NCBI GenBank assembly: GCA_964444635.1
Contig: CAYUIA010000001.1
Coordinates: 1-41,983, forward strand
Reading direction: 5' to 3'
Source of the DNA: an uncultured Gammaproteobacteria bacterium
Lineage (GTDB): Bacteria > Patescibacteriota > Patescibacteriia > Magasanikbacterales > GWA2-37-8
Length of the DNA stretch: 41,983 nt
A program made the position numbers and the translations under genes. Below the pieces are notes generated by a model that was not told where the DNA came from, made no database searches, and saw only the letters and a list, made by a program, of their open reading frames with translations. Positions 17,144-37,598 of this stretch are shown piece after piece. Position 1 is the stretch's first letter; the number at the start of each line of letters is the position of its first letter.

Positions 17144-17173
17144 TTGACAAAACACAAACTTTACTCCTATAAT
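17144..17173 (+). promoter_or_regulatory. Promoter of the 72-aa zinc-ribbon gene
   Basis: TTGACA, 18 nt, TATAAT. Confidence 0.65.
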
Positions 17174-17212
17174 AAATTGTTCTTTATTAAAAACAAATAA
17201 AAGGAGGCAAAC

Positions 17213-17431
17213 ATGGATCTATTGATAGGATTTACAGAAAACAAAATAGATTTGTTTTGCACTCGTTGTCAAAAGAGTACACAACATTTCCGTTTTGAAG
17301 AAGACCCGAGAATTGGCAGGATTGTCTGGACTTGTTCTGTTTGTAAAAAGAAAAAAGCTACCAATATTCAGGAGGTGGAAAGACAAGGTGAGGTGGAAAT
17401 CTTTGATGAAGATGATGAAGAAGAATCTTAA
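17213..17431 (+). CDS. Small zinc-ribbon protein with an acidic tail (orphan)
   Basis: 72 aa. CTRC...CSVC cysteine pairs. SD AAGGAGG 5 nt before the ATG, with its own promoter and terminator. Confidence 0.75.
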   Translation: MDLLIGFTENKIDLFCTRCQKSTQHFRFEEDPRIGRIVWTCSVCKKKKATNIQEVERQGEVEIFDEDDEEES

Positions 17432-17436
17432 ATATA

Positions 17437-17459
17437 AGACCGGCACACCGGTCTTTTTT
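17437..17459 (+). terminator. Terminator of the zinc-ribbon gene
   Basis: AGACCGG-caca-CCGGTCT followed by T5. A weaker second hairpin plus T7 lies at 17479-17505. Confidence 0.8.
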
Positions 17460-17506
17460 AATACAGAAAAAAACAAAACTCGACCAATTATGATCGAGTT
17501 TTTTTG

Positions 17507-17604
17507 TAGTCAGTAGTCTGTAGTCCGAAGTCCAATTTATAACCAGTGGGATTGCTTCGTTTCACTCGCAATGACAGTAGTCCCGTAATCTGTAGTCTGA
17601 AGAC
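17507..17604. repeat. Heptad arrays (tagtcag-tagtctg-tagtccg-aagtcca and ...gtagtct-gaagact) flanking a truncated MITE end
   Basis: Arrays at 17507-17534 and 17577-17604. 17543-17575 (ccagtgggattgcttcg...ctcgcaatgac) matches the right end of the 16771-16899 element. Confidence 0.7.
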
Positions 17605-18770
17605 TATTTTACATTCTTCACCACCACTTTAATCTTATCCGCCGAGCTTGGAGCGGTATCACTCCAAGAAGGGGAGAATTTTACATTAACTCCGGTGACA
17701 TGCGGTAAGCTCACAACATATCTTTCTATTTCACTTTTTTCTTTACCGGCAAAATTGGATTTATCCAAACTTTTGGCTTCGGCATTGAGAGTTACCAGAG
17801 TTTCTTGAGCTACGGTCAAATCGGCTGTTTGTTTTACCAGATCGGTAGAAGCCACAGTGACGACAGGTTCGCCGGAAAAGGAAAGTATTTTTTCAGAATT
17901 ATCATCTATAGATTTGCCTATTTCTTTGTTTAATATTTCTTCCAAATCTTTTTTGGCGAAATAAACCGCGACGAGAGTTGAGGTTCCTGAAAGTGTGAAA
18001 GTGCCGGTTTCTTCACCAGCTTTGTGTGAAGAGGCAGGATTGCTCTCGGTTACGGTGATGATTTTCATATCCGCCCAAAGCTCTGTTTCCCCGATTTGTT
18101 TGAGATAAGCTTGTTTTACTTTTTCTTTATAATCATTTTTGGCGGCCGAAATGTCTGTTTCAGAAACCATACCGATTTTACCGCTACCGCCGCTCATAGG
18201 TTTGGAACTCTCTGCATAAACCACTTTTTGTTTATCTGTAGAAAGTCCGGGAATAGTAAATTTGGTTGGCCCGATATCGCTAGCAGCTCCGTTTTGATCG
18301 GCATAAACTTTGGCGGTTATTTGTCCGCGAGCCGGGATAGTCACCCTATCTTCCAAACGGAAAAGCACATTATCCGGAGAAAGTAGGCGAGTGGTTTTGA
18401 CCAAGATTTGAACTTCGGAAGTATTGTTGTACAGGGTTACTTCGCCTTTGGAAATGCCTTCTACTGTTTTGACACCGGTTGGTGAATAATTTTCGCTCAG
18501 ATAAAATTTGGTGGTGGTGACGATAGCAGCTACTGATTTTTCTCCGCTTTTTTCTTTCATCGCATTTATTGAAATATTGATTGTTTTTTTACTTTCTTTG
18601 GCGATAATGGTAATTTCGGTTTTTTTCAAAGCGGAAAAAATCACAATAGCCAACAATATTACGGTTAATGCCAAAAAGGAGAAAGCAATAACTCGATAAG
18701 TTTTTACCGGCGGTTCATGAGCCGGTTTGGTAGAAAGGCGATGAGCGTACATATTAAAGTTATTTAACAT
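17604..18770 (-). CDS. Hypothetical membrane-anchored extracytoplasmic protein
   Basis: 388 aa. One N-terminal TM segment (VIAFSFLALTVILLAIVIFSAL). The rest is beta-rich, and I recognise no family. Confidence 0.6.
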   Translation of the reverse strand: MLNNFNMYAHRLSTKPAHEPPVKTYRVIAFSFLALTVILLAIVIFSALKKTEITIIAKESKKTINISINAMKEKSGEKSVAAIVTTTKFYLSENYSPTGVKTVEGISKGEVTLYNNTSEVQILVKTTRLLSPDNVLFRLEDRVTIPARGQITAKVYADQNGAASDIGPTKFTIPGLSTDKQKVVYAESSKPMSGGSGKIGMVSETDISAAKNDYKEKVKQAYLKQIGETELWADMKIITVTESNPASSHKAGEETGTFTLSGTSTLVAVYFAKKDLEEILNKEIGKSIDDNSEKILSFSGEPVVTVASTDLVKQTADLTVAQETLVTLNAEAKSLDKSNFAGKEKSEIERYVVSLPHVTGVNVKFSPSWSDTAPSSADKIKVVVKNVK

Positions 18771-18926
18771 TTAAAATTTAATATTTAAAATTACGTACGA
18801 ACTACGAAAGTATACCTGCCCGCCAACGGCCTGGAGCCGTAAGGCGAATGGCAGGCGGGCGAAATTACGAAAATAAATAAATGAATTTATTCTTTAATAT
18901 AGTATACCATTTTTGCAATAAGTTGA

Positions 18927-20630
18927 CTACTCAGTCACACGGAACACTTCCTCTACAGTCGTGACTTTGTTGAGTGCTTTGAGTATGCCATCTTGCACCA
19001 TTGTAACCATCCCATTTTTTACCGCAATTTCTTGGATAGCATATTCACTGGTTTGGCCGGTCAAAATGATTTCTTCTATTTCTTTGTTCATGGTAAATAT
19101 TTCATAAATGCCGATACGGCCTTTATAACCCAAACCCGAGCAAGCTTCACAACCTTTACCGTGATAAAATTTCAAATTATCAAAATCTATTTTATTTTTT
19201 TCGTTTTCCGGTAATTTTTCCAGTTGCTCTTTGACCCGAGTCATTTTTTCATCGTCTATTTTTATTTCTTCAATACATTTGGGACAGGTACGACGAACTA
19301 AACGTTGACCGATAATAGCATTTAGTGACGGGGCTAATAAAAAAGGCTTAACACCCATAGAAAGGAAACGAGGTAATGCCCCAGAAGCGCTGTTGGTGTG
19401 AATGGTGGATAGCATCAAGTGACCGGTCAGGGCGGCCTGAATAGCAATTTCAGCGGTTTCCAAATCACGGATTTCTCCAACCATACAAATATCGGGATCT
19501 TGGCGCAAAATACTGCGTAAACCTTTGGCAAAAGTATAATCGCGACTTGGATCAACTTGGCTTTGATTGACGCCTTCCATTTTGATTTCCACCGGATCTT
19601 CCAAGGTGATAATCTTTACTCCTGGTTTATTGAGAGTGCGTAAAATAGCGTAAAGCGTAGTTGTTTTACCAGAGCCTGTCGGACCGGTAGTGATAATCAT
19701 ACCGTTTGGTCTCTCTACTTCTCTTTTTAGTCTTTCATAAGAATCACCGTAAAAACCTAAGTCGTCAAAAGTAACACCTTTGCTACCGGAAAATAAAATT
19801 CTCATTACCACGCTCTCGCCATAAGTGGTTGGCATGGTGGAAACACGGACATCAATATTACCGGAAGGGAGTTTCAAAGTGACGCGTCCGTCTTGCGGTT
19901 TGTCGGTAATATTTATTTTAAGCGCGGCTAATAATTTGATACGAGAAACAAAACGCTTCCATTGCTCTATCGGTAAATTGGCGACATCGTGGAGTACTCC
20001 ATCAATACGATAGCGCACGGCAATGCCTTTTTCTTCGGCTTCTACGTGAATATCTGAGCTGTTTAGTTTGAGGGCAGAGGCAATAATCAAAGTCAAAATA
20101 TCGGTAATATTGATATTTTTGAATTTTTCTTCCAGAGACTGGATGTTATTCATCTCTACCTGGTATTTATTGAGCTCTTCTTCGGTAATATTAATCTCTT
20201 TACTAACCGGTTTGATGACCGGGAGATTTGCATAGAGTTTGAGTACATAGTCCAAACTATTTTGTGAGATGAGATAAATCTCTGTTTCTGCGTGACCTTT
20301 TTCACCCAGTTGATAAGCGTATTCTTTGAGTGAATCGTCCAAATCCGTAACTGCCAGCTTGATTTTGTCCGGTAGTGAATAAAAACAAATCAGATTTTTT
20401 TCACGAGCGACGCTCTCCGGGATCAAACGCAATGATTCTGCGGAAACAGGGAATCCGTAAAGGTTGATATAAGGCAGACCGAGTTCTTTGGCCTTTTTTT
20501 CCGTATCTTCTTCTCTGCCTTTTTGACGGATGGTTTTTATTTTTTGCGATAATTGCTCTTGAACATCATCGCTTTTTTTCTTGGTACCCCCCTTTTTCAT
20601 CAATTCGTTGATGGATTGAAAATCGGACAT
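18927..20630 (-). CDS. pilB: Type IV pilus / type II secretion assembly ATPase (PilB/GspE family)
   Basis: N-terminal T2SSE_N-like domain, Walker A GPTGSGKTTT, Walker B/Asp box ILRQDPDICMVGEIRD, His box GHLMLSTIHTN, and a tetracysteine motif CPKC...CEAC. Confidence 0.92.
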   Translation of the reverse strand: MSDFQSINELMKKGGTKKKSDDVQEQLSQKIKTIRQKGREEDTEKKAKELGLPYINLYGFPVSAESLRLIPESVAREKNLICFYSLPDKIKLAVTDLDDSLKEYAYQLGEKGHAETEIYLISQNSLDYVLKLYANLPVIKPVSKEINITEEELNKYQVEMNNIQSLEEKFKNINITDILTLIIASALKLNSSDIHVEAEEKGIAVRYRIDGVLHDVANLPIEQWKRFVSRIKLLAALKINITDKPQDGRVTLKLPSGNIDVRVSTMPTTYGESVVMRILFSGSKGVTFDDLGFYGDSYERLKREVERPNGMIITTGPTGSGKTTTLYAILRTLNKPGVKIITLEDPVEIKMEGVNQSQVDPSRDYTFAKGLRSILRQDPDICMVGEIRDLETAEIAIQAALTGHLMLSTIHTNSASGALPRFLSMGVKPFLLAPSLNAIIGQRLVRRTCPKCIEEIKIDDEKMTRVKEQLEKLPENEKNKIDFDNLKFYHGKGCEACSGLGYKGRIGIYEIFTMNKEIEEIILTGQTSEYAIQEIAVKNGMVTMVQDGILKALNKVTTVEEVFRVTE

Positions 20631-20632
20631 AA

Positions 20633-21598
20633 TTATTTTTGAAAAAGTTTAATAAAAAGATGGCCGATACTGGAAAAAATACCTTTGTGATGCATCTTCA
20701 TAAAAAGATACATCCAAGTACCGGTATTAAAAGCATTGTAAAAACCGCCGATAATGATTATCAAAACCGTGATAGTTAAAATACTCAAAATTATCCCTAG
20801 GTTTAACAAGAAAATACTATTGACCAGTCCGGCCAAGAACCACAGGATAGTAGCCGGAATAAAAGATAAGACAATAACTGTGGAAATCAAAGAGGCTAAT
20901 ACCAAATCCAATAGTAACATTATCAAGCTTATTTCAAAAGAAACCAAAAAGTGATCCTTGAAAAGCAAAGCGCCTTTTTTCAGACTCTCGCCAAAAGATT
21001 TATTATCAATGACTGCGTAGCCAGAAGCGTAGATAGAAACGGCGGTCACAACAAGCATGATAAAAATAGCGATGATAAAAGACAAAATCAGAAAGACCTT
21101 GGTTGGCAGGTTATTGCTTGTTCCCAAAAACCAAACACCGGCGCTAAAAGCGGTCATTAAGATCAAAATTATTTTACGTAATAAATCAAAGCCTAGTATT
21201 TTCCAAAAATATTTGTAACTTTTGTGCCAAGTATCGGATAACTTGGAATGCGTCTTCTTTTTGTAATATTCGCAAGTGTTGATAATGAGCGAAGTTTGAG
21301 CACAAACGGAAACAAAAACTATAATTATGAAAATAGCCAAAATAATCTCAAGTAGCCAAACTGCGGAAACAAAATCAGCCGCCGAGCTGTGAGCGAGTAG
21401 ATTATAAAATCCCATCCAAGGAAAATGACTGAAACGAATAGTTTCGGAACCGGTCAAAAATATTTGTCCGTAAAAACCGCCCAATCCAAAAGGGCTGACA
21501 AAAAGTGCGGCCAAAATACCGAAAATCCAAAAAGATTTATTTTTCCAAACAAGGATAAAAGCGTTTTTTAAAGCTTCGCGATAACTTGGTTCGTACAT
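20633..21598 (-). CDS. Hypothetical polytopic membrane protein, apparently translationally coupled to pilB
   Basis: 321 aa with about 6-7 hydrophobic helices. Its stop codon is 2 nt from the pilB ATG. It does not resemble PilC. Confidence 0.6.
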   Translation of the reverse strand: MYEPSYREALKNAFILVWKNKSFWIFGILAALFVSPFGLGGFYGQIFLTGSETIRFSHFPWMGFYNLLAHSSAADFVSAVWLLEIILAIFIIIVFVSVCAQTSLIINTCEYYKKKTHSKLSDTWHKSYKYFWKILGFDLLRKIILILMTAFSAGVWFLGTSNNLPTKVFLILSFIIAIFIMLVVTAVSIYASGYAVIDNKSFGESLKKGALLFKDHFLVSFEISLIMLLLDLVLASLISTVIVLSFIPATILWFLAGLVNSIFLLNLGIILSILTITVLIIIIGGFYNAFNTGTWMYLFMKMHHKGIFSSIGHLFIKLFQK

Positions 21599-21800
21599 AA
21601 AAGTTATAAGTTAAAAGTTGAAAGTTGAAAGTTCGCCCAATTAATCCCTTAAAATAGTTCGTTTGAGGCAGGTTTTAACTAAGGCAAATAAATCCCAAAA
21701 ACACAAAAAAAGCACATTCTTTTGGAACAATATTATTATAGCATATTTTGGCTAAAATGGGGAAATTTTTCTCGGTTAAATTATCAACATGGGGATTATA

Positions 21801-21829
21801 TTGACAAAAGGTATTTTTTTGGCTAAAAT
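21801..21829 (+). promoter_or_regulatory. Promoter of the 208-aa orphan gene
   Basis: TTGACA, 17 nt, TAAAAT. Confidence 0.6.
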
Positions 21830-21900
21830 AAAATGTCTTTTTTCAAAGATAAGGTTCTTTAAATATTAGATGATTTATTAACGTTTTTTCGGAGGAAAAA

Positions 21901-22527
21901 ATGGAACAAAGAATGACTTCTCAAATCGCGCCTTATTTTGGCGCGCGGCAATTGTTTGAAAAGCATGACCCGAACTCTCTCCCGAGCCTCAATGTCTTTC
22001 CTTTTTTTAAAAGAGAAAACATAAAGGCTTATCTGGACAAGCATTACCGGTTTACTCCGGCGGAAGAAAAAGAGTTTCTTTCCTGGTCCCTTGAATGTAT
22101 TATTTTACTGGAACCGGAAAACGATCTGTCCAAAGCCAATGAACTTCTCCGGCTTTTCAAAAAAGAGTTTGACGATTTCTCGGTCAACAAGGCGGTTTTA
22201 AACGCCCTGGTTCAACAGAATTTCTGCGATGAGATTGCTCTTGAGGACCTACTTGGTCTTTTACGCAACTTGGAAATCAAGCCGGGTTCTCCGGAAGCGT
22301 TTGAATTGACGGCCAAATATACAGAACGTTTTCGTGAAGAAGTTACCAGATCTTCCGAAAGCACCAAGAGAACTTTGTGCAATTTCAAAATGCTGGCGGA
22401 AAAGTTCGGCGTGGATCTCAAGGGGTTCAAAGGCTGTTTTGAATCTTTTGTGACCGATTACGAAAAACACCATCACTATAATTCCGCCGCTGTTCTTCGG
22501 GGTTTTATCGAAGAAGATCTTGTCTAA
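21901..22527 (+). CDS. Orphan 208-aa helical protein, a distant paralogue of the 30080 gene
   Basis: SD GGAGG 5 nt before the ATG, with its own promoter and terminator. Shares ...DLS...N(F)CDEIAL..(L)L.......P..A..L..KY with the 126-aa protein at 30080. Confidence 0.7.
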   Translation: MEQRMTSQIAPYFGARQLFEKHDPNSLPSLNVFPFFKRENIKAYLDKHYRFTPAEEKEFLSWSLECIILLEPENDLSKANELLRLFKKEFDDFSVNKAVLNALVQQNFCDEIALEDLLGLLRNLEIKPGSPEAFELTAKYTERFREEVTRSSESTKRTLCNFKMLAEKFGVDLKGFKGCFESFVTDYEKHHHYNSAAVLRGFIEEDLV

Positions 22528-22535
22528 AATACTTT

Positions 22536-22562
22536 AACCGTCCTATTTAGGGCGGTTTTTTT
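22536..22562 (+). terminator. Terminator of the 208-aa gene
   Basis: ccgtcc-tattta-gggcgg followed by T7. Confidence 0.75.
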
Positions 22563-22581
22563 ATCACTTTTTACATTGTGG

Positions 22582-22609
22582 TTGACTTTTTTTGGGGAAT
22601 TGTTATAAT
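22582..22609 (+). promoter_or_regulatory. Promoter of the thrS leader
   Basis: TTGACT, 16 nt, TATAAT. Confidence 0.65.
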
Positions 22610-22615
22610 TTTGAT

Positions 22616-22764
22616 TGCTAGTCAAAAGAACCAGCCCAGACGTGACAGTGTCATGGTACCACTCTTTGGAGAAACGACAATTTAGAAAAAGTGAAAAATA
22701 CGGGTGGAACCGTCCTAAATTTTTAAGGACCCCGATACCTCTGTTTTTGAGGTGTCGGTTTTTT
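22616..22764 (+). promoter_or_regulatory. T-box riboswitch leader (Thr specifier) controlling thrS
   Basis: T-box motif AAUACGGGUGGAACCGUCC. It folds as the canonical antiterminator GGG-[UGGAACC bulge]-GUCCU-loop-AGGAC-CCC. A terminator follows immediately: CCGAUACCUC-uguuuuu-GAGGUGUCGG plus U6. The specifier context GAGAA-ACG-AC at 22669-22678 matches the GAA-codon-A pattern, and ACG codes for Thr. Confidence 0.75.
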
Positions 22765-22785
22765 ATTTTAAAACATACCAATATA

Positions 22786-22880
22786 CTAATGGTACGAATG
22801 ATACTAATGCTATACTAATACTCAATACGAATATATTCGTATTCCATTCGTATAATTAGTACAATTCGTATATTAGTATA
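22786..22880. repeat. AT-rich word palindrome (tactaat/acgaat words) between the T-box terminator and the thrS ATG
   Basis: Perfect 14-nt palindrome acgaatatattcgt at 22827-22840. It is flanked by tactaat/acgaat words on the left and attagta/attcgt words on the right. Confidence 0.6.
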
Positions 22881-22899
22881 AATTAAATAATATTCACAT

Positions 22900-24735: not shown

Positions 24736-24795
24736 GTTCCATTCAAAATATAATATAACGAAATCTGTCCGTAACTCCGAAGGGGTGAAGGCGGA

Positions 24796-24825
24796 TAAAA
24801 AAAGAGCGCCGGGAGGCGCTCTTTT
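24796..24825. terminator. Bidirectional terminator between thrS and the convergent orphan gene
   Basis: aaaaaaagagcgcc-ggga-ggcgctctttt. Confidence 0.8.
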
Positions 24826-24839
24826 GGTAAGGTGCTTTT

Positions 24840-25316
24840 TTATTCGCCGATGGATTTTACGGCTTCTTTGTACAGTTCCTTTCCGATTTTTTCCGTGATA
24901 GTTCCACGGTATTTTTCCGAAGAAAGAAACTTTTTCATTCCGTCGCGATAATACTGGCTTTTGACCAAAAAAACCGATTTCGCGTCCGTCAATTTGTTCC
25001 AAAAACGGGATAAAAAATACAAGGAAAAAGCCTTGTTGGGAAACACATCCGCATGATTTTTCTGAACAAGTTCAATGAGAAAATCCGTTTTGTGGGAAAT
25101 ATTTTTCCAGACCTCATTTTTTTCTTCATCAGTCATTAGGTCATAAATCGGATATCCAGCCGTCAGAAGGAAAGCTGGAAGATTAGGATTTTTTCCTTTG
25201 GCCATGGAGATAATCATTTCTTTCTTGTCCATTTTTTCTTTTTCGTGTTTTTTTTTCTTCGCATCTTTTCTTTCTCTTGCTTCATCCAGAAAAAGTATTG
25301 TCTGTTGTGCACCCAT
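24840..25316 (-). CDS. Orphan 158-aa protein (start moved to the internal ATG preceded by an SD)
   Basis: AGGAGG lies 6 nt before the ATG at 25316 (MGAQQ...). The promoter lies downstream of the longer-ORF start at 25355. No recognisable family. Confidence 0.7.
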   Translation of the reverse strand: MGAQQTILFLDEARERKDAKKKKHEKEKMDKKEMIISMAKGKNPNLPAFLLTAGYPIYDLMTDEEKNEVWKNISHKTDFLIELVQKNHADVFPNKAFSLYFLSRFWNKLTDAKSVFLVKSQYYRDGMKKFLSSEKYRGTITEKIGKELYKEAVKSIGE

Positions 25317-25359
25317 AGAAGTCCTCCTGTGTTTGGGTAAAATAATAAAGAACATATGA

Positions 25360-25387
25360 ATTTTACTTCTTTTATTTCAAATGTCAA
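25360..25387 (-). promoter_or_regulatory. Promoter of the 158-aa orphan gene
   Basis: Minus strand: TTGACA, 16 nt, TAAAAT. Confidence 0.6.
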
Positions 25388-25402
25388 GGTTTGAGGGGAA
25401 TT

Positions 25403-25430
25403 TAAAAATCCGCCCTAAAAAGGGCGGATT
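25403..25430 (-). terminator. Terminator of the 81-aa gene
   Basis: aatccgccct-aaaa-agggcggatt (10-bp stem), followed on the minus strand by TTTTAAATT. Confidence 0.75.
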
Positions 25431-25454
25431 AAAGTAAAAGAACTTGTGGGGTTT

Positions 25455-25700
25455 TTATGTGTCCAAAGTTTCCAAAGCGGCTCTGGGAGCCAAACGAACA
25501 CACTCCTTCCAAGGAATAGGGTTTTTTTCAGTGTGCCCGCAGACAACACAGGTTATCTGTTTTTCACTGGCACCATTTTCCCAAGTTACTCCTTGAAAGT
25601 GATCTGTCTCAGTCTGACATCTTCCTTTGCAGAATTTTTTTTCCACCCAGTATCCATGATAGGGGGTTTGTGGCGGATAGCGACGATCACTGTCACGCAT
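25455..25700 (-). CDS. Orphan 81-aa cysteine-rich (zinc-ribbon-like) protein
   Basis: AGGAGG 5 nt before the ATG, a consensus promoter and its own terminator. Cysteine pattern CKGRC...CVVCGH...C. Confidence 0.72.
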   Translation of the reverse strand: MRDSDRRYPPQTPYHGYWVEKKFCKGRCQTETDHFQGVTWENGASEKQITCVVCGHTEKNPIPWKECVRLAPRAALETLDT

Positions 25701-25744
25701 TTTTTCCTCCTAAGAAAAGTGTTTTATAAAAAAGGACCAGGAAG

Positions 25745-25773
25745 ATTATACAATAAAAAAATAAAATTGTCAA
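25745..25773 (-). promoter_or_regulatory. Consensus promoter of the 81-aa gene
   Basis: Minus strand: TTGACA, 17 nt, TATAAT. Confidence 0.7.
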
Positions 25774-25788: not shown

Positions 25789-25812
25789 AAAAAAACCGCC
25801 CACAGGGGGGCG
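25789..25812 (-). terminator. Terminator of the 75-aa gene
   Basis: Minus strand: ccgccc-ccctgt-gggcgg followed by T6, immediately after the stop codon. Confidence 0.8.
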
Positions 25813-25813
25813 G

Positions 25814-26041
25814 TTAGGAAGGAAGCTTGGCGAGAGTCTTTGCTTCTTTGAAGGATTCGTAATCAATCTTCTTCTTAAGAATTTTTTTGCATTTTTCACA
25901 GCGGAGTACACTGAGATACAGACTGGTATCATGGTTCCACGCCAGTCCGGTGTGGTGTGTGGTGTGCATTCCGCATTTTTTGCAATAAGACTCTTGTTTG
26001 TCTTTTTCGTTAAAAGAGAAGTTCAACTTTTGCTTCTCCAT
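25814..26041 (-). CDS. Orphan 75-aa zinc-ribbon protein
   Basis: CKKCG...CEKCKK cysteine pairs. AAGGAGG 5 nt before the ATG, with its own terminator. Confidence 0.72.
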   Translation of the reverse strand: MEKQKLNFSFNEKDKQESYCKKCGMHTTHHTGLAWNHDTSLYLSVLRCEKCKKILKKKIDYESFKEAKTLAKLPS

Positions 26042-26157
26042 TTTTTCCTCCTTTTTTGTGTATAAAGTACTAATTATATCCTAGTAGTTATTAAAATTAA
26101 TGTCAATTTTGTTGCTAGTTGCCAAATCCACAAAAAACCGCTAAAATGCTCTAGATT

Positions 26158-27555
26158 ATGGCTAAATACTATCACATCATCACTTTTGGCTGTCAAATGA
26201 ATAAAAACGACTCAGAGCGCGCTGGGGCGCTTTTGGCGTCTCTTGGTATGAAAGAAACGCCGGTATTGGAAAAGGCGGATGTGGTGTTGGTAAATACCTG
26301 TAGCGTGCGTCAAATGGCCGAAGACAGGACCAGCGGGATAAACAGGAAGATTTTGAAATTGAAAAAACAAAAACCAAGTTTGATTTTTGCCGTAACCGGT
26401 TGTATGCCGGGGCGAGATACGGACGGACGATTGCGAAAAAAAATTCCCAGCGCGGATCTGTTTTTTCCGATCATTGATCTTCCTAAATTGCCGGTATGGT
26501 TGCGCGAACTTCAACCTGACTGGTTCAAACTGAAATTTGAAGATGTCGGACAGTATTGGAATATTGACCCAAAAAGAGAGCTTGATTACAAAGTTTTTAT
26601 CACTATTCAAATTGGTTGTAATAATTTTTGTTCGTATTGCGTAGTGCCTTATGCTCGGGGCAGAGAAAAAAACAGACCAGTGAAAGATATTTTGCAAGAA
26701 ATTAAAAAAGCGGTGAAAAAAGGCGCCAAAGAAATCACCTTGCTTGGGCAAGTAGTCAATAATTATCGCGCGCCTGACCCGGAAAATTATAAAAAAGAAA
26801 ATATATTTTCCCCCTCTGCCAGAGAGGGGGCGAAGGGGGAGAGGGAGAAAAACGATTTTGCGGCTTTGCTTTGGGAGATAAATAATATACCGGGCGATTT
26901 TCGTATTTTTTATACCGCTCCAGATCCACAACATTTTGATGATTATCAAGTTAAAGCGTTGAGTTTGCCCAAAATGGTGAACTATCTTCATTTGCCGGTG
27001 CAAGCGGGGGATAATGAAATACTCAAGAAAATGAATCGCAAATATACGCGCGAACAATTTATAAAATTAATCAAAAAAATTCGCGCGCAAAAACCCGAGA
27101 TTGCCATTGGTACGGATATTATTGTTGGTTTTTGCTCGGAAACTAAAAAACAATTTGAACAAACGGTTGATTTGTATAAACAATGTGATTTTGATATTGC
27201 GTATCTTGCTATGTACAGTCAGCGCAGTGGAACGGTAGCGGCGAAAATTTATAAAGATGATGTGGAAATTGCAGAGAAAAAACGTCGTTGGCGAGTATTA
27301 CAGGATTTGATGGAAGAAATAGTTTTGCGTAAAAACCAAAAATATTTAGGGCAAGTAGTGGAAGTATTGGTAGATGATTGTCAATCTCCCTCCTCTGCCC
27401 GAGAGGAGGGTGGGGTGGAGAGGGAGATTTGTACAGGGAATAGTAGTGAAATGAAAATGGTGCAGTTTTTGGGAAATAAAAAAATGATTGGGAAATTGAT
27501 AAAAGTGAAAATAAATTTTGCGGAGAAATGGATACTCAAGGGAGAAATAATTTAA
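26158..27555 (+). CDS. miaB: tRNA-i6A37 methylthiotransferase MiaB (radical SAM), carrying two in-frame repeat insertions
   Basis: UPF0004 N-terminal domain (YHIITFGCQMNKNDSE), radical-SAM motif CNNFCSYCVVPYARGRE and a C-terminal TRAM region. Confidence 0.93.
   Translation: MAKYYHIITFGCQMNKNDSERAGALLASLGMKETPVLEKADVVLVNTCSVRQMAEDRTSGINRKILKLKKQKPSLIFAVTGCMPGRDTDGRLRKKIPSADLFFPIIDLPKLPVWLRELQPDWFKLKFEDVGQYWNIDPKRELDYKVFITIQIGCNNFCSYCVVPYARGREKNRPVKDILQEIKKAVKKGAKEITLLGQVVNNYRAPDPENYKKENIFSPSAREGAKGEREKNDFAALLWEINNIPGDFRIFYTAPDPQHFDDYQVKALSLPKMVNYLHLPVQAGDNEILKKMNRKYTREQFIKLIKKIRAQKPEIAIGTDIIVGFCSETKKQFEQTVDLYKQCDFDIAYLAMYSQRSGTVAAKIYKDDVEIAEKKRRWRVLQDLMEEIVLRKNQKYLGQVVEVLVDDCQSPSSAREEGGVEREICTGNSSEMKMVQFLGNKKMIGKLIKVKINFAEKWILKGEII
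26809..26847 (+). repeat. GC-rich hairpin repeat in frame in miaB (copy 1, 39 nt, SPSAREGAKGERE)
   Basis: tccccctctgccagagagggggcgaagggggagagggag. Hairpin CCCCCTCT/AGAGGGGG. Exactly 13 codons. Confidence 0.8.
27385..27426 (+). repeat. GC-rich hairpin repeat in frame in miaB (copy 2, 42 nt, SPSSAREEGGVERE)
   Basis: tctccctcctctgcccgagaggagggtggggtggagagggag. Hairpin CCCTCCTCT/AGAGGAGGG. Exactly 14 codons. Confidence 0.8.
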
Positions 27556-27614: not shown

Positions 27615-27618
27615 GTAA

Positions 27619-28345: not shown

Positions 28346-28374
28346 TTGACAAAACTGGCTTTTTATGCTATATT
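28346..28374 (+). promoter_or_regulatory. Promoter of the 129-aa orphan gene
   Basis: TTGACA, 17 nt, TATATT. The promoter and leader share blocks (tttttatgctat, atagtacattaa) with the 30017 promoter region. Confidence 0.65.
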
Positions 28375-28424
28375 ATGATGTAATTTAAATAGTACATTAA
28401 TAATAAAAATAAAGGGAGGAGAAA

Positions 28425-28814
28425 ATGAAAAGGTTGATTTTAATCACCTTTTCCGATCCGACAAAAACCTGGTGTAGTTCGAAGTATCGTGACTATGTCG
28501 GCTATTTTTTGGAAAGGTTCAGAGAAAGGTTTGGGGTGAAAGAGGAAATTGAAATTGTCATCAGACATATTTCGCTTCCTCCAAATACCCAGCCCTCCAA
28601 AGTACTCGGAGATTATTTCCGAGACAGGAATTCTGAGGTTGTCGGTGTGGTTGTCCAAGCGCATGAATCTTTGGAAATAAACCAGAAAATTCTGTTTCTG
28701 GCAGAGATTATGCGAGAAGATAATCACCCGATAGAAATCATTTTTTTTGAAAACGGAAAAACATTTCTGTTGAAATCCGTTTTCAGAGGAAAAATAGAGG
28801 GTGAAGAGCTGTAA
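28425..28814 (+). CDS. Orphan 129-aa protein, member 2 of the triplet
   Basis: SD GGGAGGAG. N-terminus MKRLILITF...Y......FLERFRERFGV parallels MTKVIFITF...Y......FFEVLEGRFHL of member 3. Confidence 0.7.
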   Translation: MKRLILITFSDPTKTWCSSKYRDYVGYFLERFRERFGVKEEIEIVIRHISLPPNTQPSKVLGDYFRDRNSEVVGVVVQAHESLEINQKILFLAEIMREDNHPIEIIFFENGKTFLLKSVFRGKIEGEEL

Positions 28815-28845
28815 GCCCCGCGGATTTTGTCGGGGCTTTGTTTTT
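28814..28845 (+). terminator. Terminator of the 129-aa gene
   Basis: agccccg-cggattttgt-cggggct followed by ttgttttt. Confidence 0.7.
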
Positions 28846-28872
28846 GACAAAAATATTGCGAAGGAGTAAATT
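28844..28872 (+). promoter_or_regulatory. Promoter of the 120-aa orphan gene
   Basis: TTGACA, 17 nt, TAAATT. Confidence 0.55.
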
Positions 28873-28917
28873 AGTAGTCTGTTCTTTGAATAAAACTTTT
28901 TCAAACGGGGGTGACAA

Positions 28918-29280
28918 ATGACAAAAGTAATTTTTATCACTTTTGAGGTCGGAACCGAATGCTTTTGGAAAGAAGACAGATATCAAGCCGGAAGAAAAAA
29001 ATTCTTTGAAGTTTTGGAAGGTCGTTTTCATCTTTCAAATGTCAAAGAAAATTTTGAACCGGTTTTTGCCGTGAACCAACTTGGGCTTCCTAAATTAAAA
29101 AGCGGGGAGACCATACCCTTGGAAATGGCAGAAAAGATTCTTTCCGAATATGAAAAAAACGAGATAGTTGTAGTTGATAAATGCGGGGAAAAAGAATTTG
29201 ACGCAAAAATCAAAGACTTTATTTCCAAGCATAAAAATTTCTACGCCTTGGAGGAGGTGATAGAACATCATCACAACTAA
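28918..29280 (+). CDS. Orphan 120-aa protein, member 3 of the triplet
   Basis: SD GGGGGTGA 4 nt before the ATG. Motifs are shared with members 1 and 2 (see those entries). Confidence 0.7.
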   Translation: MTKVIFITFEVGTECFWKEDRYQAGRKKFFEVLEGRFHLSNVKENFEPVFAVNQLGLPKLKSGETIPLEMAEKILSEYEKNEIVVVDKCGEKEFDAKIKDFISKHKNFYALEEVIEHHHN

Positions 29281-29289
29281 ACAGTTAAT

Positions 29290-29314
29290 CCGCGGTACCA
29301 AACCGCGGTTTTTT
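29290..29314. terminator. Bidirectional terminator CCGCGG-N7-CCGCGG plus T6
   Basis: ccgcggtaccaaaccgcggtttttt. Overlaps the stop codon of the convergent lipoprotein gene. Confidence 0.8.
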
Positions 29315-29948
29315 ATTTCACCTCGGTAAATTTTACCGTTTTTTCAAACAATTCATTAGCCTCATCGGGTAATATAACCCCGGGGATAGAAGAAAATTTT
29401 TCTTTTTGCGGATTAAGATTAGTTAGTTCGGGAACAAAGTTTTTTTGAACTATCAAAACACCGTTTTCAGTTGGGAAATAATATTGATCATGGCCACACC
29501 CTTCAACTCCTTGTGTTAATCTATATCCTTCGCGGTCTCCGATTTTTGTTTTTTCCAAAAATCCGGTTTCTTCTTTTATAGTGCCGTCGGTATTCACAAA
29601 CTCTTTTAGATATTCTCCGCCAAATTTTGTCAGAGCTCTATCAAGCGATAGAGTAGTAAAAGAAAATTTGATAGTAAGGTCTTTGAAAGTAGTGGTTGGC
29701 AGAGAATCGCCCTTGAAATCACAAAAATCCGTATGAAGAAAAGTTTCTACCGTGTGAGAAAGAGTTACGGTCCCATTCTCGTCTTTTATTGCAAAGGGTT
29801 TCAAAAGGATTATTTTCAAATCCGCAGTTTCATAATATTGTTGTTCTATAACCCCCGGTAGCGGATAGGGTTTTTCAACTGTTAGTCTAAAACACCCGGC
29901 GATAAAAAATGCGGATAAAAGTAAAATGAAGAAAGATGCTTTTTTCAT
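29313..29948 (-). CDS. Putative lipoprotein
   Basis: Signal peptide with lipobox MKKASFFILLLSAFFIAGC. 211 aa. No SD. Confidence 0.7.
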   Translation of the reverse strand: MKKASFFILLLSAFFIAGCFRLTVEKPYPLPGVIEQQYYETADLKIILLKPFAIKDENGTVTLSHTVETFLHTDFCDFKGDSLPTTTFKDLTIKFSFTTLSLDRALTKFGGEYLKEFVNTDGTIKEETGFLEKTKIGDREGYRLTQGVEGCGHDQYYFPTENGVLIVQKNFVPELTNLNPQKEKFSSIPGVILPDEANELFEKTVKFTEVK

Positions 29949-30016: not shown

Positions 30017-30045
30017 TTGACCAAAGTGTTTTTTTATGCTATTGT
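30017..30045 (+). promoter_or_regulatory. Promoter of the 126-aa orphan gene
   Basis: TTGACC, 17 nt, TATTGT. Homologous to the 28346 promoter and leader. Confidence 0.55.
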
Positions 30046-30079
30046 TTTGATAGTACATTAAACAACAGGGGGGTGATAA

Positions 30080-30460
30080 ATGCCGGAAAAAGGAAATAAA
30101 AAGTTCGCTGTTTTAGAGAGCAGAGTAAAAAGTCTCAAGGTAGATGACTTGTCGATAAAAGACCTAATTGCTTTATCGGACGAGTTAAATTTTAAAAACA
30201 GGATAGTTGCCGAAGAGATGTTGATTCGGAAAAACTGCGATGAGATAGCACTTCGTCATATATTGCGAAATGCTAGCAAAGAACCGCGCCAAGAAGCTGC
30301 TAAGCGTCTTTTGGAAAAGTATCCCACTCGGGATAATCTGGGGATGATTATTCGTTATTGTGAATATTATCGTCATAGAGCATTTGAAATGCTCAAAGAA
30401 AAAGAAGGGCAGGAAAACGCTCAGGCGATTTTTCTTAACAACATTTACAAAGACAGTTAA
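30080..30460 (+). CDS. Orphan 126-aa helical protein, paralogue of the 21901 gene
   Basis: SD GGGGGGTGA. Shares the CDEIAL-containing block with the 208-aa protein. Has its own terminator. Confidence 0.7.
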   Translation: MPEKGNKKFAVLESRVKSLKVDDLSIKDLIALSDELNFKNRIVAEEMLIRKNCDEIALRHILRNASKEPRQEAAKRLLEKYPTRDNLGMIIRYCEYYRHRAFEMLKEKEGQENAQAIFLNNIYKDS

Positions 30461-30466
30461 ATTATG

Positions 30467-30494
30467 CCGACCTTATGTAGAGGTCGGTTTTTTT
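30467..30494 (+). terminator. Terminator of the 126-aa gene
   Basis: ccgacct-tatgtag-aggtcgg followed by T7. Confidence 0.8.
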
Positions 30495-30520
30495 GACGAA
30501 AAAAATATAATTGGTATAAT
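30493..30520 (+). promoter_or_regulatory. miaA promoter placed only 9 nt from the ATG (near-leaderless)
   Basis: TTGACG, 16 nt, TATAAT, 9 nt, ATG. Confidence 0.55.
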
Positions 30521-30529
30521 GATAATATT

Positions 30530-31450
30530 ATGAAAAATAAACTTCCAAAATTAATCGTTGTTTGCGGTCCGACCGCCAGCGGTAAAACCGATTTGGCTAT
30601 TGTATTGGCCAAAAAATTTAACGGTGAAATAGTCAATGCCGATTCTCGACAAATTTATAAAGAAATGGATATTGCCACCGCCAAGCCGACTCTGGACTAC
30701 GGACTACAGACTCCCGACTACATTGTTGACGGGATAAATCATTATTTACTTGATATTATAAACCCGGATGAAAATTTTACACTCAGCGATTATAAAGATC
30801 AAGCTCAAAAAACAATTAAAGAAATTATCAAAAAAGGAAAAATTCCTTTTTTGGTCGGTGGAACCGGTCTTTATATCAAAGCGATTGTAGATAATCTGGA
30901 AATCCCGAGAGTTGAACCGGATTTGGTTTTGCGCAGAGAGTTAGAAAGTAAAAGTGCGGAGGAAAGGATCAAAATGCTCAAAGAAATTGATCCGGAAACT
31001 TATGAAAAAATAGATATACAAAATCCGCGCCGGGTTATTCGAGCGCTTGAAGTGGTGCTAAGTACCGGGGAATCGTTTTTGAAACAACAAAAAAAAGGCA
31101 AACCGCTTTACGATGTTTTACAGTTAGGAATAAAAGTTGATAAAGAAAATTTATATGAGCGAATAAATAAGCGTTGTGAAAAAATGATTGAAGCCGGTTT
31201 AGTTCAAGAGGCCAAAAGGTTGGCACAAAAATATTCTTGGGAGTTGCCCAGTATGAGCGGTATCGGTTATAGACAAATGCGCGATTATATCGAGGGTAAG
31301 ATGACTTTGGAGGAGGCGATAGAATGGCTCCAAACAGATACTCGACATTATGCCAAACGACAGATGACTTGGTTTAGGAAAGATGAAAGAATTCATTGGA
31401 TAGAAAACGAGAAACAAGCAGAAAAGAAAATAGACGAATTTTTGAAATAA
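30530..31450 (+). CDS. miaA: tRNA dimethylallyltransferase MiaA with a short in-frame repeat-derived insertion
   Basis: P-loop GPTASGKT, then IVNADSRQIYKEMDIATAKP, LVGGTGLY and the C-terminal RHYAKRQMTWFR. Confidence 0.94.
   Translation: MKNKLPKLIVVCGPTASGKTDLAIVLAKKFNGEIVNADSRQIYKEMDIATAKPTLDYGLQTPDYIVDGINHYLLDIINPDENFTLSDYKDQAQKTIKEIIKKGKIPFLVGGTGLYIKAIVDNLEIPRVEPDLVLRRELESKSAEERIKMLKEIDPETYEKIDIQNPRRVIRALEVVLSTGESFLKQQKKGKPLYDVLQLGIKVDKENLYERINKRCEKMIEAGLVQEAKRLAQKYSWELPSMSGIGYRQMRDYIEGKMTLEEAIEWLQTDTRHYAKRQMTWFRKDERIHWIENEKQAEKKIDEFLK
30692..30712 (-). repeat. tagtc-type heptad repeat inside miaA (opposite orientation)
   Basis: The reverse complement agtctgtagtccgtagtccag matches 19/21 nt of the intergenic agtctgtagtccgaagtccaa at 17515-17535. 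It encodes part of LDYGLQTPDY. Confidence 0.7.
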
Positions 31451-35949: not shown

Positions 35950-36024
35950 GACCGCAGTTTTTTGAAATCCGAAAAAAATTCACAAAATTTGGGATTTGTG
36001 ATTTTGAATTTATTATTTTATTTA

Positions 36025-37161
36025 TTATACCATTTTTTGATAAACCGATAAAGTGGTTTCAGCGGTATTTTTTTGGCTATATTTAGACAAAATATACGGC
36101 ATGTTGTTGATAAGTTTTTGGCGTATGTTTGTATCGGTCAAAATTAGGCTTATTTTTGAACAAATATCTTGTTCAGTTAGAGGATCAAAATACAAAGCTG
36201 CTTCACCTAAAATTTCCGGCAAACAAGCGGAGTTGGTAGAAATTGTTGGTACACCATATTGCATAGCTTCAAGCGGAGGCAAACCAAATCCTTCGTATAA
36301 AGAAGGAAAAACATAAGCGGTTGCATTTTTATAAAACATTGCCAATTCTGCATCAGGCACAAAATCCGTAAAAACAATATTTTGACAATTTTTAAAAATT
36401 TCGGAATTTATCAAGCGATCGTAAAAATAATTTTTTTTGCCAACTAGAACAAGTTGAAAATTTTTATTTTTTTCTTCAAATTTTTTCCAAGATTTCACGA
36501 GCTGTTCCAGGTTTTTATGTGGATAAGCCACCCCTACATAAAGCAGATAAGGCTTTAAAATATGATGCTTTATTAAAAGATTTTCGTTTCCATACTTAAT
36601 ACTTGATACTGGATACTTTATACCCAAATCGGTCGGAGCCAGATGGGTTACGGTGATTTTTTCTTCCGGCATGTGTAGGGTTTTAGTTATATCCTGTTTG
36701 GTAAAGTTACTTGGGGTTATAATTTGCACGGCCTTTTTAACCGCATGGTGTAGGATAAATCTATAAGCGAGATTTTTGAAAAAATATTTGAGCGGTCCCA
36801 AGGTGCTGGATTGGCGACTTGGATAATGAAGTAAAATCAGGTCATGAATAGTTACAATAAATTTTCCGCGATAAAAAAACGGGATATTCCAGTGGGGAAA
36901 ATGGACAAAATCACAATTTTCTTTTTTTAAAATTCTAGGCAGTAAAATTTGCTCTTGCCAGCCATACCATGGAATATCGGCTAAAATCTTTTTAAAACGA
37001 GGATTTTTTGGTTGATATTCTTCAAAATTTTCTTGACGCAAAAAAATCACGTAATCATTGTTTTGGTCGTTTTTTTCTAAACCTGTTATGAGTTGTTGTA
37101 AATAGCGCCCCAGACCACCCTGTTTTGGGCCGTATAGGCGCGCATCTATCCCTATTTTCAT
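36025..37161 (-). CDS. Glycosyltransferase family 4 (GT-B, Glycos_transf_1)
   Basis: FPSLYEGFGLPPLEAMQYGVPTISTNSACLPEILG (E-x7-E region). Contains the in-frame 35-nt heptad element. Confidence 0.88.
   Translation of the reverse strand: MKIGIDARLYGPKQGGLGRYLQQLITGLEKNDQNNDYVIFLRQENFEEYQPKNPRFKKILADIPWYGWQEQILLPRILKKENCDFVHFPHWNIPFFYRGKFIVTIHDLILLHYPSRQSSTLGPLKYFFKNLAYRFILHHAVKKAVQIITPSNFTKQDITKTLHMPEEKITVTHLAPTDLGIKYPVSSIKYGNENLLIKHHILKPYLLYVGVAYPHKNLEQLVKSWKKFEEKNKNFQLVLVGKKNYFYDRLINSEIFKNCQNIVFTDFVPDAELAMFYKNATAYVFPSLYEGFGLPPLEAMQYGVPTISTNSACLPEILGEAALYFDPLTEQDICSKISLILTDTNIRQKLINNMPYILSKYSQKNTAETTLSVYQKMV
36590..36624 (-). repeat. 35-nt, five-heptad (GTATNNN) element in frame inside the GT4 CDS
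   Basis: The reverse complement ggtataaagtatccagtatcaagtattaagtatgg encodes GIKYPVSSIKYG. Together with the next 4 nt it matches gtattaagtatggaaac of the intergenic blocks at 14740-14756 and 16955-16971. Confidence 0.8.
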
Positions 37162-37230
37162 ATTATTTTAAGTATAATGCAAATCTTTAGTTAAGCCAAG
37201 TTTCTCCCCAAATTGATTGATTGGGTAAAT

Positions 37231-37259
37231 TTGACAAACAAAAAAAAGAGGGATAAAAT
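37231..37259 (+). promoter_or_regulatory. Promoter of the 76-aa zinc-ribbon gene
   Basis: TTGACA, 17 nt, TAAAAT. It lies inside the longer ORF-track call that starts at 37213. Confidence 0.6.
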
Positions 37260-37311
37260 AGTTTCTTCTTGTTCTTTCGACAAATCATCCAACCTGTTTT
37301 TGGAGGCGCCA

Positions 37312-37542
37312 ATGACCAAACCTCTTTTGAAGAAAAAGGAAAATGAAGAAATTGATCGTATTTGCGGTCAATGCAGCGGTAAAGAAAAAAACCTAGTTCC
37401 CCATGTGGCTTATTATGCTATGTGTGTGGGGACATTATGGAGGAAAATGAACTGCAAAACATGCGGAAGCATTTCTCAAGAGCCAGTCAGTAGTAAAGAG
37501 GAAGATAAGGTGATGAAAGATTTTGTCATAAAAGAAATGTAG
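37312..37542 (+). CDS. Orphan 76-aa zinc-ribbon protein (start moved to the ATG preceded by an SD)
   Basis: GGAGG 5 nt before the ATG at 37312 (MTKPLL...). CGQC...CKTCG cysteine pairs. Has its own terminator. Confidence 0.7.
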   Translation: MTKPLLKKKENEEIDRICGQCSGKEKNLVPHVAYYAMCVGTLWRKMNCKTCGSISQEPVSSKEEDKVMKDFVIKEM

Positions 37543-37566
37543 TCTCGAAGACTACAAAACATAACC

Positions 37567-37598
37567 AAGACCCTTTTTAAGGGTCTTCTTTTATTTTA
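37567..37598. terminator. Bidirectional terminator between the zinc-ribbon gene and the convergent GT4
   Basis: aagaccct-tttt-aagggtctt followed by cttttatttt. Confidence 0.7.

Follow-up and report, generated by a model that had tools for sequence, protein, structure and literature searches.

Strong Shine-Dalgarno sequences on small clade-restricted genes set among core genes without them in a Candidatus Magasanikbacteria contig

In Bacteroidia, Shine-Dalgarno (SD) sequences are avoided throughout the genome and are kept on rpsU for autoregulation (PMC7797042, PMC9976891, PMC13000453). This is the closest known system to the one described here, which was found in a metagenome-derived contig of an uncultured Candidatus Magasanikbacteria organism (Patescibacteria, or candidate phyla radiation, CPR). 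The whole stretch that was analysed, hereafter the window, is contig CAYUIA010000001.1 with a length of 41,983 nucleotides (nt). In the window, ten short genes without known family (mini-genes, named after their start positions) carry a strong SD, each in a cassette with its own promoter and terminator, and they are interleaved with 22 core genes that lack an SD.

Like Flavobacterium johnsoniae among the Bacteroidia, this organism appears nearly SD-free with AU-rich, unstructured initiation regions, and a minority of genes keep a strong, conserved SD that is presumed to be functional. The SD-bearing class differs from that of Bacteroidia in kind, number and architecture. It consists of about ten small orphans per 20 kb, whereas the Bacteroidia keep the SD on the single bS21 gene, and the SD-bearing genes here also share a promoter type, a box in the leader and a terminator. 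The nucleotide at position -1 of genes without an SD is U in 85-91% here but in 42% in Bacteroidota, and the start signal in Bacteroidia consists of upstream adenines. The defining feature of rpsU is absent, as none of the ten mini-genes matches bS21 or any other ribosomal-protein model of Pfam or NCBIfam above the cut-off.

A second comparison is offered by a study of the anti-SD in Parcubacteria (Tsurumaki et al. 2022, PMC9297842), which belong to the same superphylum. There, an anti-SD motif was found in only 48% of Parcubacteria 16S genes, bS21 was frequently missing, and SD-dependent initiation is reported to be dispensable for some members of the group; in agreement with this, the Zambryskibacteria and Paceibacterota relatives analysed here have almost no SDs. 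However, that study deals with the 16S motif and describes neither the SD usage of single genes nor a split into classes within one genome, and the SDs found here imply that the canonical anti-SD was kept in this genus.

By exact protein matches the window falls on JGI metagenome contig 3300010355 Ga0116242_10001815, and contigs near-identical to it occur in several ENA, JGI and NCBI assemblies. Relatives were taken from a ThrS-based scan of species-representative genomes and are labelled Patescibacteria or Candidatus Magasanikbacteria (loci carry L numbers). Five of them are genus-level relatives (L007, L008, L009, L010 and L011; ThrS identity 88-97%), and L012-L020 (53-63%) include Zambryskibacteria, Paceibacterota and other Magasanikbacteria. 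The lineage was further sampled by 36 UvrA-centred metagenome loci (39-85% identity), and Bacteroidota loci served as an SD-poor control. The ThrS sequences next in similarity after the Patescibacteria among species-representative genomes belong to Bacteroidota, apart from one bin that carries the label Acutalibacteraceae, with identities of about 47-50%, and "uncultured Gammaproteobacteria" is a label on several CPR-like metagenome-assembled genomes in this match list. SD strength was expressed as hybridisation energy to the canonical anti-SD ACCUCCUUA, that is, to the canonical tail and not to one read from this genus.

The original prediction, made from the letters of the window, held that conserved genes lack an SD while ten orphan mini-genes carry one, and it quoted ten upstream sequences, all of which were found in place. 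The split is borne out and can be extended. GGAGG, AGGAG or GGGGGTG lies 5' of the ATG in all ten mini-genes with a spacer of 4-7 nt, within the usual SD spacing of about 4-9 nt. Predicted pairing with the anti-SD ranges from -8.7 to -11.6 kcal/mol for the ten mini-genes and from -3.3 to +1.9 kcal/mol for the 22 core genes, and the two ranges are disjoint (Mann-Whitney p = 8e-6). The combination of SD, ATG and an open reading frame (ORF) of at least 70 amino acids (aa) occurs 11 times in the window vs 0.12 times in 200 Markov shuffles, an excess of about 90-fold. Among large genes (220 aa or more), an SD is found in 0 of 17 in the window, in 3 of 37 in the genus and in about 8 of 226 in the 36 further Patescibacteria loci.

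The other signals proposed for the mini-genes were recovered as well: the promoter TTGAC[ACT]-N16-18-TAnnnT is present 34-71 nt before the ATG in 10 of 10, and a hairpin with a T-run follows within about 50 nt of the stop codon in 10 of 10. In contrast, the impression that mini-genes are GC-richer than their neighbours did not hold (GC 0.386 vs 0.381, p = 0.92; GC at third codon positions 0.390 vs 0.347, p = 0.053). A signal that is new relative to the original prediction is a box, GT[TAC]C[TA]TT, near the predicted transcription start. The cassettes are as follows.

17144-17462, + strand: m17213, -35 TTGACA 17144-17149, -10 TATAAT 17168-17173, box GTTCTTT 17179-17185, SD AGGAGG 17202-17207, coding sequence 17213-17431 (72 aa, CxxC...CxxC zinc ribbon), terminator 17436-17462
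21801-22564, + strand: m21901, -35 21801-21806, -10 TAAAAT 21824-21829, box GTTCTTT 21854-21860, SD GGAGG 21891-21895, coding sequence 21901-22527 (208 aa, all-alpha), terminator 22536-22564
24794-25387, - strand: m25316, -35 25387-25382, -10 25365-25360, box GTTCTTT 25353-25347, SD AGGAGG 25328-25323, coding sequence 25316-24840 (158 aa), terminator 24824-24794
25402-25773, - strand: m25700, -35 25773-25768, -10 TATAAT 25750-25745, box GTCCTTT 25737-25731, SD AGGAGG 25711-25706, coding sequence 25700-25455 (81 aa, zinc ribbon), terminator 25428-25402
25789-26106, - strand: m26041, -35 26106-26101, -10 26083-26078, box GTACTTT 26070-26064, SD AGGAGG 26052-26047, coding sequence 26041-25814 (75 aa, zinc ribbon), terminator 25813-25789
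27619-28297, + strand: m27690, -35 TTGACT 27619-27624, -10 TAGTTT 27642-27647, box GATCTTT 27655-27661, SD AGGAG 27678-27682, coding sequence 27690-28244 (184 aa), terminator 28270-28297
28346-28843, + strand: m28425, -35 28346-28351, -10 TATATT 28369-28374, box GTACATT 28392-28398, SD GGGAGG 28414-28419, coding sequence 28425-28814 (129 aa, Rossmann-like), terminator 28815-28843
28844-29318, + strand: m28918, -35 28844-28849, -10 TAAATT 28867-28872, box GTTCTTT 28881-28887, SD GGGGGTG 28907-28913, coding sequence 28918-29280 (120 aa, distant paralogue of m28425), terminator 29287-29318
30017-30495, + strand: m30080, -35 TTGACC 30017-30022, -10 TATTGT 30040-30045, box GTACATT 30053-30059, SD GGGGGGTGAT 30068-30077, coding sequence 30080-30460 (126 aa, helical, weakly similar to m21901), terminator 30466-30495
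37231-37595, + strand: m37312, -35 37231-37236, -10 TAAAAT 37254-37259, box GTTCTTT 37271-37277, SD GGAGG 37302-37306, coding sequence 37312-37542 (76 aa, Cys-rich), terminator 37566-37595

The 22 SD-less core genes interleaved with these cassettes lie within 6714-41546, and the names that large genes had been given agree with precomputed Pfam matches (rnc, nusB, rpmF, FemAB, gyrA, MBL fold, S1, FtsH, T2SSE/pilB, thrS, miaB, miaA, DUF4012, three GT4 and Bac_transf). The named SD-less genes are:

Within 6714-41546: rnc, nusB, rpmF, femAB-like, gyrA, MBL-fold gene, rpsA, ftsH, pilB and its neighbours
Within 6714-41546: thrS, miaB, miaA, DUF4012 gene, three GT4 genes, wbaP-like gene

We consider it probable that two modes of translation initiation coexist in this organism, one independent of the SD for core genes and one by SD pairing for small clade-restricted proteins. 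On core mRNAs the ribosome would load on AU-rich, G-poor, weakly structured regions, probably with the help of S1, at a near-invariant U directly before the AUG, and a few mRNAs (miaA, miaB) would be close to leaderless. The cassettes would be monocistronic and combine a near-consensus sigma-70-type promoter, the box, a leader, an SD at the optimal 4-7 nt and an intrinsic terminator. Their SDs would pair with a canonical 16S tail, and the signals together should raise expression far above that of core genes, possibly under joint regulation. Such cassettes would occupy variable slots, evolve fast under purifying selection and move between related genomes by homologous recombination.

Conservation among relatives is in favour of this reading. 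In genus-level relatives the orthologous mini-genes keep the SD and the large genes are without one, and the SD, the -35 element and the box are kept in mini-gene orthologues while the surrounding leader diverges. For example, the m17213 orthologue in L010 is 75% identical and retains promoter, box and SD, and TTGAC and the SD are still present in the m21901 homologue of L131, which shares only 30% protein identity. In an alignment of six orthologues 5' of m25316, the invariant parts are TTGAC, part of the spacer and the -10 element, and eight consecutive columns GTTCTTTA, and the remaining leader positions diverge. As read from the sequence, GGGGGUGAU in the m30080 leader is able to form 9 bp with the 16S tail in its canonical form, AUCACCUCC. 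The canonical tail GAUCACCUCCUU accommodates AAGGAGG as well as GGGGGUGAU, the two forms of SD seen here, by which retention of the canonical anti-SD in this genus is implied. We pooled the genus-level loci and compared 38 SD-led genes (median 131 aa) with 97 SD-less genes (at least 150 aa):

TTGAC-N16-18-TAnnnT promoter: 95% of SD-led genes, 11% of SD-less genes
GT[TAC]C[TA]TT box near the predicted transcription start: 76% of SD-led genes, 4% of SD-less genes
Terminator: 87% of SD-led genes, 37% of SD-less genes
U at -1: 5% of SD-led genes, 87% of SD-less genes

The predicted cassette leaders are about 28-65 nt long. The box is always in sense orientation and, after the -35 element, is the best-conserved block upstream of the genes. 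It also stands 5' of SD-led genes of relatives that the window lacks (a 137-aa and an 83-aa gene in L009, a 70-aa gene in L131, a 287-aa gene in L007) and of an M16 peptidase gene in L007, and so precedes unrelated proteins. These properties, with the unequal distribution of the box between SD-led and SD-less genes, would also be expected if the mini-genes form a co-regulated regulon or are translated conditionally, the box being an operator or RNA element that marks, together with the SD, genes that are switched jointly. This explanation overlaps with the coexistence of two initiation modes, and as an account of its own we regard it as possible though unlikely. The switch might be a factor that binds the box, sequestration of the SD by the box, which is rich in pyrimidines, or control over anti-SD accessibility of the kind seen in Bacteroidia ribosomes without bS21, a precedent given by PMC9976891, and host contact or stress are examples of a trigger. 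In favour of such a role, the box of m21901 lies 24 nt downstream of the -10 element and is thus inside the transcript. However, in 7 of 10 window cassettes the box follows the -10 hexamer at 5-8 nt, which places it at the predicted transcription start, and it may be no more than a favoured sequence for the first transcribed nucleotides. Pairing of UUCUUU or UCCUUUU with the SD is part of the minimum-energy fold in 3-4 of the ten leaders, but this pairing is weak (-4 to -10 kcal/mol) and is absent for the GTACATT variants and from most leaders; we therefore rejected the box as an SD-sequestering, fourU-like element. In addition, no regulator or palindrome was identified, no mini-gene resembles bS21, and bS21 is in any case often missing in Parcubacteria.

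The core genes differ from the mini-genes in more than the SD. Their region from -30 to -1 has 17% GC vs 30% in mini-genes, G is nearly absent from -15 to -1, and the predicted folding energy from -30 to +30 is -3.9 kcal/mol for core genes, -7.6 for mini-genes and -8.6 for gene-internal windows. U is found at -1 in 20 of 22 window core genes vs 1 of 10 mini-genes (Fisher p = 2e-5). Among large genes of the window, L007-L020 and L095-L130, it reaches 85% in the genus and 73% of 273 genes in other Patescibacteria, vs 42% in Bacteroidota. To our knowledge, such a start-context signal is undescribed for CPR. The S1 protein is encoded in the window (rpsA, 13498-14688). From the above, core genes most likely initiate without an SD on AU-rich, G-poor and weakly structured regions.

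Alternatively, core mRNAs might be leaderless or translationally coupled and need no SD for that reason, with an SD required only by the 5' untranslated regions of the mini-genes. Leaderless and short-leader mRNAs are known from Actinobacteria, Deinococcus and archaea (PMC3160421, PMC8459731). A likeness to these is seen in four genes of the window (miaA, miaB and the GT4 genes GT4a and GT4c), in which a -10 box lies 5-10 nt before the ATG:

30493-30532, + strand: miaA promoter, TTGACG-N16-TATAAT, ending 9 nt before the ATG
26119-26147: miaB promoter, ending 10 nt before the ATG

For miaA, this position gives a predicted leader of about 2-3 nt. The spacing between promoter and ATG of both genes is kept in L007, L009 and L010 while the intervening 9-10 nt diverge, which predicts near-leaderless mRNAs for miaA and miaB. 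The -10 boxes of GT4a and GT4c, 9 and 5 nt before the ATG, were seen in the window. Among core genes at large there is a T/AAA signal at -15 to -12, but TAnnnT is only slightly overrepresented 9-10 nt before the start codon, and this weak positional peak involves about 7-12% of genes. Leadered and operon-internal core genes are SD-less too. The operon-internal nusB, rnc, pilB and a 628-aa gene have no SD; thrS has none despite a conserved T-box-like leader and a spacer of 130-190 nt; and for wbaP, ftsH, rpmF and the lipoprotein gene the best promoter predictions imply leaders of about 20-50 nt, again with no SD. A general leaderless model for core genes was thus rejected for its weak positional enrichment and kept as a partial rival, and we find it doubtful as the source of the split.

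To assess the mini-genes as genes, we located their orthologues by tblastn at the same syntenic positions in genus-level relatives, with 35-96% protein identity. The ratio of non-synonymous to synonymous divergence (dN/dS) of the mini-genes tested is 0.06-0.41 overall (0.13 for m21901, 0.20-0.41 for m25316, 0.19-0.31 for m25700, 0.06-0.07 for m26041 and 0.07-0.15 for m28918), their dN is mostly above that of the adjoining housekeeping genes, and synonymous divergence across the genus is near saturation (dS 0.7-3). By these measures the mini-genes are real genes under purifying selection. The protein of m25316, for example, is 35-49% identical between relatives in which ThrS is at least 90% identical, and the 76-aa gene call of m37312 is also made in other assemblies of the species.

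That the mini-genes cannot be placed in any family was also verified, with 0 of 10 matching Pfam, NCBIfam, PHROGs or PADLOC, and an assignment to defence, phage or known families was rejected. The best matches to the bL33 model, for m26041 (E = 0.009, 16 bits) and m17213 (E = 0.07, 13 bits), are far from the cut-off of 40 bits and are confined to the CxxC knuckle. AlphaFold predicts a Rossmann-like alpha/beta domain for m28425 (predicted local distance difference test, pLDDT, 83), for which Foldseek returned weak generic matches only (CARF, Argonaute MID, TIR-like; TM-score 0.4-0.5 and E about 1e-3 for CARF and Argonaute MID). For m21901 an all-alpha model was obtained (pLDDT 90.5) with no fold match in the PDB by Foldseek (best E = 0.6). 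The m28425 family has 11 homologues and m26041 two clusters among 5.8 billion proteins, and m21901 has 12 representatives among 1.84 billion; for these three families no homologue outside the clade was found in these sets.

The mini-genes appear to fall into about four small unrelated groups. A zinc-ribbon group (m17213, m25700, m26041) shares [FY]CxxCxxxTxH...CxxC with weak BLAST matches, and m37312 perhaps belongs to it. The m28425/m28918 pair is weakly supported (hhalign E = 9e-5), the helical pair m21901/m30080 has E = 6e-4, and m25316 is a group of its own. We found no support for m27690 as an m28425 paralogue (hhalign E = 0.13).

Cassettes have been gained, lost and replaced in these slots between housekeeping genes among relatives and strains; strain L003, for example, has a paralogue of about 45% identity in the m27690 slot. 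The m27690 cassette is about 100% identical between window positions 27500-28390 and L007 positions 14480-15370, where the flanks are 75-92% identical, and a segment of m28918 (28990-29190) also reaches 99-100% identity in this comparison. These segments point to recent recombinational exchange of single cassettes. One apparent case of fast change was not confirmed: m25316 had seemed hypervariable, or targeted by a diversity-generating retroelement, with protein identity of 79-89% between same-species contigs, and this was rejected as the DNA is 99.9% identical with one frameshifting indel. In the same-species assemblies L001, L004 and L005 the gene is split by a single indel into ORFs of 130 + 46 aa or 35 + 46 aa, for which pseudogenisation, phase variation and an assembly error are possible causes.

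Phage morons are autonomous promoter-ORF-terminator units located between conserved genes. The cassettes resemble them as single small ORFs with their own promoter and terminator whose presence varies between relatives, and together with the exchange of one cassette across two species-level lineages this might suggest recent imports from SD-using donors or phages that retained foreign signals. However, such an origin is improbable. The cassettes stand in a chromosomal housekeeping setting without any match to phage families in PHROGs or to PADLOC, the families searched are restricted to the clade, GC content equals that of the host, and the promoter is of the same type as that of the host gene miaA. 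Moreover, the mini-genes are syntenic across the genus at the dS values given above, so that most cassettes are, on this evidence, old within the genus and resident accessory genes rather than recent imports. They also differ from integron cassettes in that each unit has its own promoter; no flanking repeats were noticed and no integrase is found among the annotated genes, with no dedicated search made for either and none aimed at attC.

That the mini-ORFs are non-coding and their SD-like motifs due to chance or another role, as missing family matches and the frameshifted m25316 copies might hint, is hardly credible and effectively refuted by dN/dS well below 1 in all mini-genes tested, with reading frames kept at 35-96% protein identity, confident AlphaFold models (m28425, m21901) and the near-absence of such ORFs from shuffles also against it.

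Several results weigh against the coexistence of two initiation modes as outlined, or limit it. The sample is a partial genome: some 42 kb from this organism, a flank of about 10 kb, and neighbourhoods in relatives. The 16S rRNA is absent from the 130 loci examined, and the anti-SD was consequently deduced from SD motifs, not seen. Because the ten cassettes share a single 20-kb stretch, the effect may be a regional one. High expression is predicted from consensus matches. Orphan status does not suffice for an SD, since genes of 86, 388, 321, 211 and 830 aa and a 3065-aa giant have neither a Pfam match nor an SD. Conservation is no absolute bar either, as core genes with an SD occur in relatives, namely nusG (L098, L126) and the M16 peptidase gene (L007). 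The strong SD of nusG (AAGGAGA; L098 20518-21063, L126 20213-20758, where nusG lies downstream of a membrane-protein ORF) is present in 2 of 12 related lineages and in none of the other ten, and so SDs on core genes come and go within the lineage.

The rule thus has exceptions, and the SD-led class of relatives includes larger genes (287, 314 and 410 aa). In the wider lineage, SDs are almost absent from the UvrA-centred loci, as their count among large genes shows, and from L012-L020 except for four genes in L016. In L016, a more distant relative, strong GGAGGTG-type SDs precede genes for pilB/T2SSE, an HD-domain protein and a cytidylyltransferase (3585-5318, 6607-7662, 19420-21091). These are conserved genes, and SD usage therefore varies between related lineages.

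The mini-genes had also been described as scattered between housekeeping genes. In fact all ten are clustered in 17.1-37.6 kb, and no cassette was found in about 54 kb of other sequence of the same species or genus (window 1-17 kb and 37.6-42 kb, the next 10 kb in L087, and a 22-kb UvrA region of a genus-level relative, in which nusG is the sole SD-led gene).

Generally, the interpretation given in the original prediction is partly supported. It had offered two readings, and the first, a separate small-protein set in an SD-poor organism, fits all the sequence evidence: the lineage is SD-poor, SDs persist in orthologues while leaders diverge, and the classes differ also at -1, in leader GC and in predicted structure. 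That this set is highly expressed or condition-specific we infer. The second reading, a recently spread gene family with its own expression signals, is right in that the mini-genes are accessory, turn over, are exchanged between relatives and share promoter and leader motifs. It fails on "one family", as there are about four unrelated groups, and on "recent", given synteny, synonymous divergence and host GC.

A more speculative extension, for which we would claim little confidence, is a system of two channels: an SD-independent, low-output core, and a promoter-box-SD channel for co-regulated, fast-evolving small proteins exchangeable by recombination, with the box or access to the anti-SD as the switch. 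In such a system the small proteins (zinc ribbons, a Rossmann-like domain, a helical fold without a PDB match) could mediate interaction with host or phage.

Other elements of the window were recorded alongside. Tandem arrays with a period of 7 (also 9, 14, 18 and 21) and 3.6-6 copies lie in intergenic regions 5' of SD-less core genes:

9544-9570, 12137-12221, 16936-16961, 18762-18792, 21598-21633: tandem arrays of the window
22775-22884, 38715-38828, 39992-40037, 41621-41699: further tandem arrays of the window

There are 11 period-7 arrays in the window vs 0.0 in 20 Markov shuffles. Some reach the ATG, e.g. (AACTTTY)x5 before the minus-strand gene starting at 21598, and none was found in mini-gene leaders. 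Genus-level relatives have 2-4 arrays per 20 kb, most other Patescibacteria and Bacteroidota loci about none, and the unit sequence differs between relatives at the same spacer. Cyanobacterial heptamer repeats of the short tandemly repeated repetitive (STRR) type are the closest known analogue.

An RNA upstream of thrS looks like a T-box leader:

22582-22768: thrS leader, promoter 22582-22609, RNA of about 150 nt, terminator 22732-22758, no ORF

It contains GAACCAG, in which an A follows the Thr codon ACC, and a T-box-like sequence ACGGGTGGAACCGTCC. A bulged antiterminator can form (CGGG / UGGAAC bulge / GUCC...GGAC / CCCG), and it overlaps with the terminator. The leader is kept in L007-L011 and partly in L016-L019, with a variable hairpin that changes on both sides, and the Rfam T-box model gave no match on it even at E up to 10.

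A repeat of about 45-90 nt flanks ftsH, with a third partial copy (14696-14771, 16897-16986, 17078-17110), and consists of a terminator-like hairpin followed by GGTAGTTAGTATTAAGTATGGAAACTGTAAATATGTCATCCCTG. A 92-aa ORF without family match (16798-17076) overlaps the repeat, and in strain L003 an IS200-type Y1 transposase gene adjoins the upstream copy. The 3065-aa ORF is truncated in the window (4-6324) and complete in L091 (11531-20728); it has no Pfam match on record and no SD, and TATAAT lies 19 nt before its ATG. In L091 (k141_102340, same species), two extra SD-less orphans of 830 and 56 aa stand between rpsA and the MBL-fold gene (1296-3969), a site that corresponds to about 13270-13500 of the window, and in L094 a gene of the 23S_rRNA_IVP family follows rnc.

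The signals described here amount to a recognition rule: TTGACA-17-TAnnnT, then the GTWCWTT box, an SD, a small ORF and a terminator would identify real small orphans that are probably highly expressed. Such orphans are unnamed and inconsistently called by annotation pipelines across assemblies, and they are candidates for the lineage-specific biology of an episymbiont. The cassette signals could serve as strong expression elements for Patescibacteria genetics, and the U(-1)AUG context together with AU-rich leaders could improve the start models of gene finders. If the reading of two coexisting modes is true, one small genome would use both modes of initiation for two separate gene sets, a natural experiment in start-site selection. 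As CPR are largely uncultured and their ribosomes are reduced, the finding would bear on how such ribosomes choose start codons.

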